A DNA stretch of 64,000 bases from Escherichia coli (GTDB taxonomy: Bacteria; Pseudomonadota; Gammaproteobacteria; Enterobacterales; Enterobacteriaceae): assembly GCF_003334385.1 (NCBI RefSeq), contig NZ_QOWN01000023.1. The stretch is one strand, 5' to 3'. Of the stretch, positions 21,120 to 24,138 are shown piece after piece. Every line of letters starts with the position of its first letter. Position 1 is the first letter of the stretch. The position numbers were made by a program, and so were the translations under genes. The notes under the pieces were generated by a model, which ran no database searches, was not told the origin of the DNA, and worked only from the letters and a program-made list of their open reading frames with translations.

Positions 21120-22403
21120 ATGACAGAAGCGATGAAGATTACCCTCTCTACCCAACCTGCCGACGCGCGCTGGGGAGAAAAAGCAACTTACAGCATTAAT
21201 AATGACGGCATTACCCTGCATTTGAACGGGGCAGACGATCTGGGGCTGATCCAGCGTGCGGCGCGCAAGATTGACGGTCTGGGCATCAAGCATGTTCAGT
21301 TAAGCGGTGAAGGCTGGGATGCGGATCGCTGCTGGGCATTCTGGCAAGGTTACAAAGCCCCGAAAGGCACGCGTAAAGTGGTGTGGCCGGATCTGGACGA
21401 TGCCCAGCGCCAGGAACTGGATAACCGCCTGATGATCATCGACTGGGTGCGTGACACCATCAACGCACCGGCAGAAGAATTGGGACCATCGCAACTGGCA
21501 CAGCGTGCTGTTGATCTGATCAGCAACGTCGCGGGCGATCGTGTGACTTATCGGATCACCAAAGGCGAAGATCTGCGTGAGCAAGGTTATATGGGGCTGC
21601 ACACAGTCGGACGCGGTTCAGAACGTTCTCCGGTATTGCTGGCGCTGGATTACAACCCAACTGGCGATAAAGAAGCGCCAGTGTACGCGTGCCTGGTAGG
21701 TAAAGGTATCACTTTTGACTCCGGCGGCTACAGCATCAAACAGACTGCGTTTATGGACTCGATGAAGTCGGACATGGGCGGCGCGGCAACGGTTACCGGG
21801 GCGCTGGCATTTGCCATTACGCGCGGACTGAACAAGCGCGTGAAGCTGTTCCTCTGCTGTGCGGATAACCTGATTAGCGGCAATGCGTTCAAGCTGGGCG
21901 ATATCATCACCTATCGCAACGGTAAAAAAGTTGAAGTGATGAACACTGATGCCGAAGGGCGTCTGGTGCTTGCCGATGGTCTGATTGATGCCAGTGCGCA
22001 GAAACCGGAAATGATCATTGATGCGGCGACCCTCACCGGGGCGGCGAAAACTGCGCTGGGTAATGATTATCACGCGCTGTTCAGTTTTGACGATGCGCTG
22101 GCCGGTCGCTTGCTGGCGAGTGCCGCGCAGGAGAACGAACCGTTCTGGCGTCTGCCGCTGGCGGAGTTCCACCGCAGCCAGCTGCCGTCTAACTTTGCCG
22201 AACTGAACAATACCGGAAGCGCGGCGTATCCGGCAGGCGCGAGCACGGCGGCGGGCTTCCTGTCGCACTTTGTTGAGAACTATCAGCAAGGCTGGCTGCA
22301 TATCGACTGCTCGGCGACTTACCGTAAAGCGCCGGTTGAACAGTGGTCTGCGGGCGCTACGGGACTTGGTGTGCGCACGATAGCTAATCTGTTAACGGCG
22401 TAA
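21120..22403 (+). CDS. pepB: Aminopeptidase B (M17 leucyl aminopeptidase family)
   Basis: M17 signature NTDAEGRL; 427 aa from [11 protein letters not shown]. Confidence 0.93.
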
Positions 22404-22512
<109 letters not shown>

Positions 22513-22544
22513 GCGCCCCGAACGTTGAATGAATTGTGGTTCTT

Positions 22545-23321
22545 ATGTCCGAAACAAAAAACGAACTTGAAGACCTGCTGGAAAAAGCAGCAACTGAACC
22601 GGCGCACCGCCCGGCCTTTTTCCGTACTCTACTGGAATCCACCGTCTGGGTGCCTGGTACGGCGGCGCAGGGCGAGGCTGTGGTTGAAGATAGCGCGCTT
22701 GATTTACAGCACTGGGAAAAAGAAGACGGCACCAGCGTCATTCCTTTTTTCACCTCGTTAGAAGCACTTCAACAGGCGGTTGAAGACGAACAGGCATTTG
22801 TCGTAATGCCCGTTCGCACGCTGTTTGAGATGACACTTGGCGAAACGCTCTTCCTTAATGCCAAACTGCCAACCGGTAAAGAATTTATGCCGCGTGAAAT
22901 CAGTTTGTTGATTGGTGAAGAGGGAAATCCGCTGAGCAGCCAGGAAATCCTGGAAGGCGGTGAATCGCTGATATTATCGGAAGTCGCAGAGCCGCCAGCA
23001 CAAATGATTGATTCACTCACCACCTTATTTAAAACCATTAAGCCGGTGAAGCGTGCTTTTATTTGTTCAATTAAAGAGAACGAAGAGGCACAGCCTAATT
23101 TACTTATTGGCATTGAAGCCGATGGTGATATCGAAGAAATTATTCAGGCGACGGGAAGTGTAGCGACCGATACATTACCTGGCGATGAACCAATCGATAT
23201 TTGTCAGGTGAAAAAAGGGGAAAAAGGAATTAGCCACTTTATTACCGAACATATTGCGCCATTCTATGAACGTCGCTGGGGTGGTTTTTTGCGTGACTTT
23301 AAACAGAATCGGATAATCTAA
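22545..23321 (+). CDS. sseB: Enhanced serine sensitivity protein SseB
   Basis: 258 aa from MSETKNELEDLL; gene order pepB-sseB. Confidence 0.88.
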   Translation: MSETKNELEDLLEKAATEPAHRPAFFRTLLESTVWVPGTAAQGEAVVEDSALDLQHWEKEDGTSVIPFFTSLEALQQAVEDEQAFVVMPVRTLFEMTLGETLFLNAKLPTGKEFMPREISLLIGEEGNPLSSQEILEGGESLILSEVAEPPAQMIDSLTTLFKTIKPVKRAFICSIKENEEAQPNLLIGIEADGDIEEIIQATGSVATDTLPGDEPIDICQVKKGEKGISHFITEHIAPFYERRWGGFLRDFKQNRII

Positions 23322-23625
23322 AATATGCCGCCCAAAGGGCGGCATTCGGGCTTACTTGCTGCTCTGAAGGTTGTTAACCACCAGTAAATTGTCGCCGGAG
23401 AGACTCCGGTTATTATTTACCTCGGTTAACAGCGCACCAGAAACAATAAGTACGATACAAAAGCACCGTATCTTCATTGTGCGGTCCATGCGAAGACCGC
23501 ATCACGACAGCACCACTGGCGATATTGCCGCGATAGCAAGCGCTGTGAAACACCTGCATTTACGGCCACGGAACATCCTTTCCTAAAGCCAGCGCCCGTT
23601 TGCGAGACGGCGGAAAGGGCCGCAG
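23318..23625 (-). ncRNA. ryfA: Candidate ~300 nt RNA (RyfA-like), minus strand, carrying small ORFs
   Basis: Minus-strand -10 TATTAT (plus coordinates 23629-23634); GC hairpin 23325-23345 followed on the minus strand by AUUUUAG; span fits the ~300 nt RyfA RNA of the sseA-sseB spacer from memory. Confidence 0.4.
23352..23477 (-). CDS. Candidate small hydrophobic protein (41 aa; 45 aa if started at 23489)
   Basis: MKIRCFCIVLIVSGALLTEVNNNRSLSGDNLLVVNNLQSSK: basic N-terminus plus 15-residue hydrophobic stretch; ends 7 nt before terminator hairpin; no obvious SD; same frame as upstream 24-codon ORF (23502-23576) across a TGA. Confidence 0.3.
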   Translation of the reverse strand: MKIRCFCIVLIVSGALLTEVNNNRSLSGDNLLVVNNLQSSK

Positions 23626-23806
23626 TGGATAATACACTAACAGAACAATAATAACTCTCTTTTGCTTGACAAAAAGAGAGTTACTGGCGAGTATTGTCTC
23701 CGCTGAGACGCGCTTGCATTACTACGGTAATACAACCTGCTGGAAAGGCCGCGAACCGGACCAGCAACAAAAAACCGCCTGATTTTGGCGGTTTTTTGTT
23801 TTTTAA
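23609..23806 (+). repeat. Copy 1 of ~196 bp direct repeat: A/T-stem hairpin containing TTGACA (23666-23671) and a factor-independent terminator (23769-23804); candidate small RNA (RyfB-like)
   Basis: Near-identical core AACTCTCTTTTGCTTGACAAAAAGAGAGTTACTGG and CTGCTGGAAAGGCCGCGAACC shared with copy 2; GC stem plus T-run. Confidence 0.6.
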
Positions 23807-23930
23807 AGGAAAATGAATTTACATGTTTAAGTAATATCTTTTACCGGTTAGAATTTTTAATTTTGAGCAGGATTTGTTTATATTTGTCTGAATTCGGACT
23901 AATAAGCCAGGTTATTTTATTACCGAACAC

Positions 23931-24126
23931 GGCGGAAAGGGCCGGTGTCGATAATACGCTAAATAAACAATAATTACTCTCTTTTGCTTGACAAAAAGAG
24001 AGTTACTGGTGAGTATTGTTTTGCTGTGAAGCACCTGCGTTGCTCATGTAACACAAGTCAACCTGCTGGAAAGGCCGCGAACCAGACTAGCAATAAAAAA
24101 CCGCCAAATTCGGCGGTTTTTTATTG
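23931..24126 (+). repeat. Copy 2 of the same ~196 bp unit (TTGACA 23988-23993; terminator 24095-24123); candidate sibling small RNA (RyfC-like)
   Basis: Offset 322 bp from copy 1; diverged central segment, conserved ends and terminator. Confidence 0.6.
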
Positions 24127-24138
24127 CCTGTAAAATAC

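Follow-up and report, generated by a model that had tools for sequence, protein, structure and literature searches.

The window analysed here is a 64,000-nt stretch of the Escherichia coli contig NZ_QOWN01000023.1 (assembly GCF_003334385.1). On its minus strand, an initial annotation had marked a candidate frame for a small hydrophobic protein at 23576-23352, interrupted by an in-frame TGA. This interval covers two-thirds of the ryfA/timP transcript, on its 5' side, and the transcript forms the toxin arm of timP-TimR, a type I toxin-antitoxin-like locus of enterobacteria. With high confidence, the second of the two predicted peptides is the known toxin TimP, and the first is a chance, non-conserved frame that runs across the structured leader controlling toxin translation. 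Previous publications already cover the locus with its toxin and antitoxin RNA, the structure of the leader, and even an upstream open reading frame (ORF) there that is not conserved. ryfA has been renamed timP: in Salmonella, its ORF gives a 38-amino-acid toxic inner-membrane protein, and the divergent small RNA (sRNA) TimR represses timP (PMC7667032). The toxicity of TimP upon overexpression and the repression of its translation by TimR have been described for the Salmonella orthologue only (PMC7667032, PMC11228461). Studies of uropathogenic E. coli (UPEC) and avian pathogenic E. coli (APEC) assign the ryfA phenotypes to the RNA (PMC8205139, PMC13188913).

The timP gene and its transcript

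The timP frame occupies 23477-23352 on the minus strand and encodes the 41-amino-acid protein TimP (MKIRC...SSK). In a genome of 100% identity, the RefSeq coding sequence "timP" lies at exactly these positions. The protein matched the NCBIfam profile NF040796 (toxic_TimP) with 86.8 bits, above the cut-off of 45, and its residues 1-40 fell on profile positions 1-40 of 40, that is, from its own start codon. The frame behind the TGA is open, as initially annotated; it runs into MKIRCFCIVLIVSGALLTEVNNNRSLSGDNLLVVNNLQSSK and closes with the TAA at 23354-23352. However, it holds 49 sense codons (CGLRMDRT plus the 41 codons of TimP) and not 56.

The RNA that carries this frame was identified in an Rfam scan. 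RF00126 (ryfA) was matched at 23623-23320 on the minus strand over the full length of the model (1-296 of 296; 314.9 bits; E = 4.5e-88), above the gathering score of 80. This RNA, the timP mRNA, consists of a 146-nt structured 5' untranslated region (UTR), the timP ORF, and a terminator; the whole RNA has a minimum free energy of -129.4 kcal/mol (z = -5.4 versus shuffles). The intrinsic terminator was located at 23345-23325 (minus strand) by a terminator scan and by the Rfam 3' hairpin. Its 9-bp stem contains 7 G-C pairs and is followed by ATTTT. The stop codon is indeed close to this hairpin, with a gap of 6 nt instead of the 7 nt reported. The locus occupies the conserved position between sseB (22536-23321, plus strand) and sseA (from 24139, minus strand). 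The Citrobacter and Kluyvera loci have the same neighbours, and the Salmonella copy is flanked by sseB/pepB. Among complete E. coli genomes, all 5,426 contain the region.

The timP ORF is intact, with its N-terminal 16 residues conserved, in Escherichia, Citrobacter, Kluyvera, Klebsiella, and Salmonella. Over codons 1-19, mean pairwise variability was 0.165, 0.146, and 0.281 at the first, second, and third codon positions, respectively, the third position being the most variable. Between K-12 and Citrobacter freundii, synonymous and nonsynonymous codon differences stood at 6:5. These and the corresponding counts for the upstream ORF rest on 13-15 sequences. timP is thus a complete gene that starts at its own ATG, and not what is left of a longer, broken one. 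In Salmonella, an ATG-to-AAG mutation of the timP start abolished both the protein and its toxicity (PMC7667032). By homology with Salmonella TimP, E. coli TimP is probably an inner-membrane protein with a Sec signal that would cause membrane leakage when overproduced. The initial suggestion of a small membrane toxin therefore holds for the second segment, which is TimP, but not for the first, which is not a gene.

A second in-frame ATG lies at 23489 on the minus strand, in the loop of stem-loop (SL) 4 of the leader and four codons upstream of the TimP start. It opens a 45-amino-acid ORF (MDRTMKIRC...), the form used in the UPEC study (PMC8205139), and some RefSeq Citrobacter entries annotate a 42-amino-acid equivalent of this extended form. 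Because of the Salmonella start-codon mutant (PMC7667032), the downstream ATG is supported over that at 23489. Disrupted natural timP alleles were also seen, in E. coli and E. albertii genomes (proteins P0001, P0041, P0054, P0031, and P0071). Three disrupted alleles have a common foreign C-terminal tail (GNDSNLLIVFYVQIMPDD...), which suggests an insertion element within timP; two are fused to other-frame leader ORFs via deletions that remove SL4 and the start codon.

An alternative view of the transcript is that in E. coli it acts mainly as a base-pairing sRNA (RyfA) for stress resistance, fimbriae, and virulence, with a TimP ORF that is dispensable or unexpressed. This view bears on the transcript's function rather than on the upstream ORF, and an RNA with a dual function would agree with it. 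In UPEC CFT073, the phenotypes of a ryfA deletion could be complemented with three alleles whose TimP ORF had been destroyed (PMC8205139). According to the APEC study, whether a toxic peptide is encoded by E. coli ryfA has yet to be determined (PMC13188913). Furthermore, conservation is stronger in the leader than in the 3' half of timP. Nevertheless, the intact timP ORF with its conserved N-terminus across five genera, the bias of its variation to third positions, and the conservation of a cognate TimR and of all RNA elements for regulated translation speak against a dispensable ORF. We regard the view of a mainly base-pairing RNA as possible but rather unlikely.

The upstream frame and the structured leader

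The upstream ORF is present at 23576-23502 on the minus strand, as the initial annotation had claimed. It reads ATG TTC CGT ... TCG TGA, has 24 codons plus the TGA, encodes MFRGRKCRCFTALAIAAISPVVLS, and shares the frame of timP. It covers leader positions 48-122, where leader position equals 23624 minus the window coordinate and published elements were mapped onto the K-12 allele. The ORF ends one nucleotide before SL4 and 24 nt upstream of the timP AUG. A protein-family scan gave no match for the 24-amino-acid peptide. The 146-nt leader has a G+C content of 60%, and stop codons are very scarce in all of its frames. When the leader was shuffled 5,000 times with its dinucleotides preserved, an ATG ORF that had at least 24 codons and closed inside the leader arose in 16.5% of the shuffled sequences when any frame was allowed and in 6.5% when only the timP frame was counted; hence, neither the upstream ORF nor its in-frame relation to timP is beyond chance.

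Homologous loci were collected from E. coli genomes, from a genome scan, and from exact-protein look-ups after a profile search, and 19 loci were compared. The scan of genome contigs with the SL4 pattern GCGGTCNNNGCANNGACCGCACNNNNAAG returned 7 loci, including the chance match L005, and missed Salmonella. A word-indexed protein search yielded close relatives only, nearly all annotated as Escherichia or Shigella. The profile search of a representative library reached TimP of Citrobacter, Kluyvera, Klebsiella, and Salmonella. Except for L005, every collected locus that was tested was a full-length ryfA in Rfam.

Start, frame, and length of the upstream ORF are not conserved among these loci. The 24 codons are kept in 9 of the 19, among them K-12-type, KFu014, O157:H7, 21AH004, and SCPM-O-B-8794 E. 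coli, Escherichia sp. E1V33, the C. freundii complex, and Kluyvera sp. STS39-E. Four loci (E. coli W, E. whittamii, and two sampled W-type variants) read MFRDR-stop, with a TAG at codon 6. Another four have no ATG, with ATA in Salmonella enterica, ACA in Citrobacter sp. MGH106, TCG in a Citrobacter metagenome-assembled genome, and ATT in a plasmid copy. The frame is shifted by indels in Kluyvera georgiana and Klebsiella aerogenes, and part of the 5' leader is missing in C. amalonaticus. Among the 5,426 E. coli genomes, the W-type allele was counted in 2,992 (approximately 55%), the K-12-type in 1,986, and the O157-type in 589, at 95% identity or more over a 91-nt segment of each allele; the classes overlap slightly. 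Exact 33-mers over codons 1-10 were found in 1,805 W-type and 1,646 K-12-type genomes. Given the frequency of the W-type allele, the upstream ORF is only five codons long in roughly half of E. coli.

A protein-coding substitution pattern is likewise absent from the upstream ORF. Mean pairwise variability by codon position was 0.189, 0.230, and 0.118, the third position being the lowest. Synonymous and nonsynonymous codon differences between K-12 and C. freundii were 0:10, and comparisons of K-12 with the other intact alleles gave 0-1 synonymous to 5-10 nonsynonymous differences (seven intact alleles compared). The synonymous-site pattern named in the initial annotation as a mark of a gene is therefore missing, the differences being almost all nonsynonymous. 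Of the two peptides, TimP is conserved in related genomes but the upstream one is not. In agreement, RNAcode applied to the Rfam alignment found the timP ORF only, and the discovery paper noted the ORF in the leader and judged it non-conserved (PMC7667032).

What is conserved in this segment is the RNA structure. Pair counts were made on a 14-sequence alignment with 13 distinct rows. For SL1-SL4 and the pseudoknot, 97.3% of cells were paired, compared with 35-50% when the partners were slid. Compensatory changes occurred at 10 leader pairs, and as many were seen in 0 of 500 shuffles. The leader thus contains SL1-SL4, the SL1-SL3 pseudoknot, and the site 2-site 4 pairing of timP-TimR loci. The upstream ORF lies wholly inside leader elements defined experimentally in Salmonella, i.e. 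site 2, the TimR-binding SL2, and SL3, and its Shine-Dalgarno-like element lies in SL1.

SL1, located at 23617-23578 (minus strand) by the Rfam consensus structure, contains a lower stem in which CUUUCC (positions 7-12) pairs with GGAAAG (41-46). Pairing in helices 1 and 2 reaches 98-99%, and compensatory changes occur. The Shine-Dalgarno-like element of the initial annotation, AGGAAAGG, does stand directly 5' of the ATG, but it is base-paired as the 3' strand of the SL1 lower stem. This stem is needed for translation in Salmonella (PMC11228461). Pseudoknot site 1 (positions 30-36, 23594-23588) lies within SL1 and pairs with site 3 in SL3 (positions 104-110, 23520-23514). The pseudoknot helix is 100% paired, and its pair 31/109 varies among G-U, A-U, and G-C. 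In Salmonella, the pseudoknot is indispensable for translation of timP and is destabilised by TimR (PMC11228461). Site 2 (GGCCGU, positions 57-62, 23567-23562) falls on codons 4-5 of the upstream ORF. Its pairing with site 4 (positions 124-129), the 5' flank of SL4, is 98.7% complete among 13 distinct homologues, with no compensatory change, so that the support is conservation only. In Salmonella, this pairing opens SL4 and frees the timP Shine-Dalgarno sequence (PMC13000454). SL2 (positions 68-87, 23556-23537) contains the TimR target. The putative TimR-binding site (positions 64-82, 23560-23542; repeat family D3) corresponds to codons 6-12 and is the hypervariable part of the leader. SL3 (positions 90-123, 23534-23501) spans codons 15-24 and the TGA; its helix is 96.8% paired, with 4 compensatory pairs. 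SL4 (positions 124-143, 23500-23481) starts one nucleotide past the TGA and sequesters the timP Shine-Dalgarno sequence (GGA), a role described for Salmonella (PMC11228461, PMC13000454). Its helix 6 is 97.4% paired. All of these elements are on the minus strand.

The two halves of the upstream peptide follow this structure. The variable "basic" half coincides with the TimR target, and in all species examined this target changes along with the antisense sequence upstream. The invariant "hydrophobic" half, LAIAAISPVVLS, results from a triplet reading of SL3, which hardly varies. Conservation within the upstream ORF exists because RNA pairing is kept (97% of pairs, 10 compensatory). The upstream frame is not a gene but a by-product of reading a G+C-rich, stop-poor, structured leader in triplets, and both its common frame with timP and the TGA between them are coincidental.

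The upstream ORF could instead be a regulatory leader ORF whose ribosomes unwind SL2 and SL3 and are delivered or coupled to timP, in the manner of mok/hok or tap/repA-CopA, with TimR blocking its translation. This idea was raised in the discovery paper (PMC7667032), and it would fit the purine-rich motif before the ATG, the overlap with the TimR site, the end of the ORF just ahead of SL4 and near the timP AUG, and a 24-codon length kept in four lineages. However, the ORF is absent, five codons long, or frameshifted in Salmonella, two Citrobacter, most E. coli, E. whittamii, K. georgiana, and K. aerogenes, and the relatives that lack the 24 codons all keep an intact timP and the leader structure. 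In addition, the purine-rich motif is paired with covariation, and the ORF is devoid of a coding signature. In Salmonella, a mutation of the start of a leader ORF (mutant M1; uORF start at positions 53-55, stop at 77-79) left timP translation unaffected (PMC11228461), and the pseudoknot and site 2-site 4 pairing account for this translation in a purified in vitro system (PMC11228461, PMC13000454). A regulatory leader ORF is thus very unlikely, and the same evidence goes against the two coupled small ORFs proposed initially.

Several observations, besides the UPEC and APEC results above, count against reading the upstream ORF as a by-product and the downstream one as the toxin gene. The 24-codon frame and its ATG are kept in K-12-type and O157-type E. 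coli, the C. freundii complex, and Kluyvera sp. STS39-E. Such retention exceeds the expectation for a random ORF, although the strong nucleotide conservation of SL3 explains it. The uORF mutated in Salmonella is not the K-12 frame-0 ORF; it has 8 codons, lies in another frame, and starts at position 55 in the present numbering (53 in the paper). A search for ribosome-profiling data on the locus found none; the only "ryfA" match in Stringer et al. was within a protein sequence.

Another leader frame of this kind was noticed. A 31-codon ORF in frame 2 lies at 23569-23474 (minus strand), and its TGA overlaps the timP start as ATGA. It starts with GTG in K-12 and with ATG in O157-type E. coli, C. 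freundii, and Kluyvera sp., is start-less in the W-type, and is only 8 codons long in Salmonella and in Citrobacter sp. MGH106; in Salmonella, it corresponds to the uORF whose mutation had no effect (PMC11228461). No clear coding signature was seen in this frame.

The two segments might also be one ancestral toxin gene of approximately 74 amino acids, broken by a TGA nonsense mutation or expressed via read-through or selenocysteine. The common frame, and the basic N-terminus and following hydrophobic stretch of each segment, would suit such a gene. However, the TGA codon (23504-23502) is a stop in every full-length homologue examined, being TGA in all but Escherichia sp. E1V33, which has TAA; no sense codon was found there. 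At this codon, the indel-bearing loci L017 and L018 were aligned by position only. No fusion through the TGA was found among 68 TimP-containing database proteins, whose longer entries are C-terminal insertions, internal deletions, other-frame fusions, or starts extended by MDRT. A hypothetical 74-amino-acid fusion aligned with the 40-position profile NF040796, which begins at the MKIRC methionine, over residues 34-73 only. A degenerate 74-amino-acid gene was rejected on the kept stop, the own ATG of TimP (proven as the start in Salmonella, as above), and the lack of fused proteins. Selenocysteine incorporation and programmed read-through at the UGA were rejected because E1V33 carries TAA (which excludes selenocysteine there), the frame is broken further upstream in many homologues, fused products are lacking, and the Rfam scan revealed no family of the selenocysteine insertion sequence (SECIS) type at E-values up to 1. 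An ancestral gene is hence barely conceivable. Among the three options of the initial annotation, chance best accounts for the upstream ORF and the in-frame TGA.

A structured, G+C-rich RNA leader can thus give rise, as a by-product, to a short ORF with a basic and then a hydrophobic stretch after a purine-rich motif. Sampling the alleles of a single species, here 5,426 E. coli genomes, sufficed to reveal this.

TimR genes and proposed regulation of timP

Two TimR-like sRNA genes lie divergently from timP on the plus strand. The distal one, TimR2, is located at 24023-24127; its 5' end was placed at the start of the complementarity, and its terminator is the inverted repeat I5. The proximal one, TimR1, lies at 23702-23800 and matches the timP allele of the window imperfectly. 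Both end in a G+C hairpin followed by a T-run. Pairing was assessed by ungapped alignment of defined TimR 5' ends; this replaced long-range RNAduplex runs of the leader versus 400-560 nt of upstream antisense sequence, which were too noisy. The first 19 nt of TimR2 pair with leader positions 64-82 through 17 Watson-Crick and 2 G-U pairs with zero mismatches. TimR1 has 2 mismatches with the leader of the window, and one mismatch plus one G-U pair in 20 nt with the W-type leader. The window therefore carries a divergent sRNA gene with a terminator and a 5' end complementary to the timP 5'UTR. On this complementarity, TimR2 is the predicted best-matching antitoxin for the present timP allele. Strain KFu014 has a single TimR2-type unit beside the same leader allele, and the full extra unit was found in 1,891 of the 5,426 E. 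coli genomes. No description of the two-TimR arrangement of K-12-type strains was found in the literature. For specialists, the point is that, of the two TimR variants that K-12-type strains carry, the distal one fits their timP leader better. The two paralogues may differ in the strength of timP repression.

In the proposed mechanism, the timP Shine-Dalgarno sequence would be locked in SL4, and timP would be translated from its own AUG at 23477. Translation would need the SL1-SL3 pseudoknot together with the site 2-site 4 pairing that opens SL4. Binding of TimR to SL2 would destabilise the pseudoknot, and initiation would be blocked. This mechanism has been demonstrated in Salmonella, and the conservation of every pairing argues for it in E. 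coli. For the K-12-type and O157-type alleles, there is a slim chance that occasional translation of the upstream ORF might add allele-specific control of timP. A ribosome passing through SL2 and SL3 would then melt the pseudoknot and the TimR site and stop one nucleotide before SL4, and the frequency at which the timP Shine-Dalgarno sequence is exposed could change.

Other elements were observed around the locus. IS128 RNA (Rfam RF00125, 260 bits) lies at 23755-23963 on the minus strand. Its first part copies the timP promoter region along with ~30 nt from the start of ryfA; a unique AT-rich stretch of 128 nt follows, and the end is at a bidirectional terminator that it has in common with TimR1. 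From this composition, it looks like a remnant of a second timP module. A 30-nt palindrome, ACTCTCTTTTGCTTGACAAAAAGAGAGT, occurs at 23652-23681 and at 23976-24005, between each TimR-like gene and the timP or IS128 start. Within it, one strand carries TTGACA and the opposite strand TTGTCA; these may be -35 elements that overlap and face in divergent directions. A minus-strand TTGTCA-16-TATTGT was rejected as a timP promoter because it is too distant from the annotated 5' end, and no promoter is claimed. Between pepB and sseB, an element resembling a repetitive extragenic palindrome (22398-22442 of the window) gave a sub-threshold naRNA4 match (40.3 bits versus a gathering score of 59.5).

Un-annotated ryfA/timP homologues were also found outside the sseA-sseB neighbourhood. 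One (L012, 1499-1797) is on a plasmid of E. coli NE88, and another (L018) is on a K. aerogenes contig with hha and umuC-like neighbours. The plasmid copy has a 134.7-bit Rfam match and a 40-amino-acid ORF (MKKYYMCIFIVVTGALF...), and occurs on non-mobilizable E. coli plasmids of approximately 48 kb, including the plasmid of ATCC 25922. It is present in 63 PLSDB records and annotated in 0 of them. Matches to C4 antisense RNA and isrK on the timP-bearing plasmid suggest a phage-plasmid.

Comparison with known systems

The closest known system is timP-TimR of Salmonella enterica serovar Typhimurium (ryfA/STnc2070; Andresen et al. 2020; Holmqvist lab 2024, 2026). Both loci belong to the same Rfam family and the same sseA-sseB neighbourhood, and both encode a homologous small protein with the N-terminus MK(I/V)R(C/Y)FC(I/V)VL.VSG. 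They also have in common the SL1-SL4 leader, the pseudoknot, the site 2-site 4 pairings, and a divergent TimR whose 5' end pairs with SL2. However, E. coli TimP has 41 amino acids and not 38, and its C-terminal half differs. At leader position 48, the K-12-type allele has the ATG that opens the 24-codon frame-0 ORF, whereas Salmonella has ATA. Furthermore, the window carries two TimR-like genes and the IS128 RNA segment.

The hok/mok/sok system of plasmid R1 and tap/repA-CopA are similar in that the ribosome-binding site of a small toxin or essential ORF is sequestered, and an upstream ORF overlaps the target of the antisense RNA. Their leader ORFs are conserved, overlap or abut the downstream start, and are required for translation. 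In contrast, the upstream ORF of the present locus is non-conserved, its end is 24 nt away from the timP AUG, and the equivalent uORF of Salmonella is not needed (PMC11228461).

In the E. coli type I toxin-antitoxin loci tisB-istR-1, zorO-orzO, shoB-ohsC, and dinQ-agrB, whose antitoxin sRNA genes do not overlap the toxin genes, as here, toxin and sRNA genes are adjacent and divergent, and the sRNA pairs far upstream of the ribosome-binding site of the toxin. No sequence homology to these systems was found, with only weak, sub-threshold Rfam matches to ohsC, AgrB, and OrzO at the TimR terminator regions. tisB-istR-1 also has a structured leader with a pseudoknot needed for initiation. Distinct from these loci, the timP mRNA is activated by a structural switch and not by nucleolytic processing, and TimP carries a Sec-type signal (PMC7667032, PMC11228461, PMC13000454).

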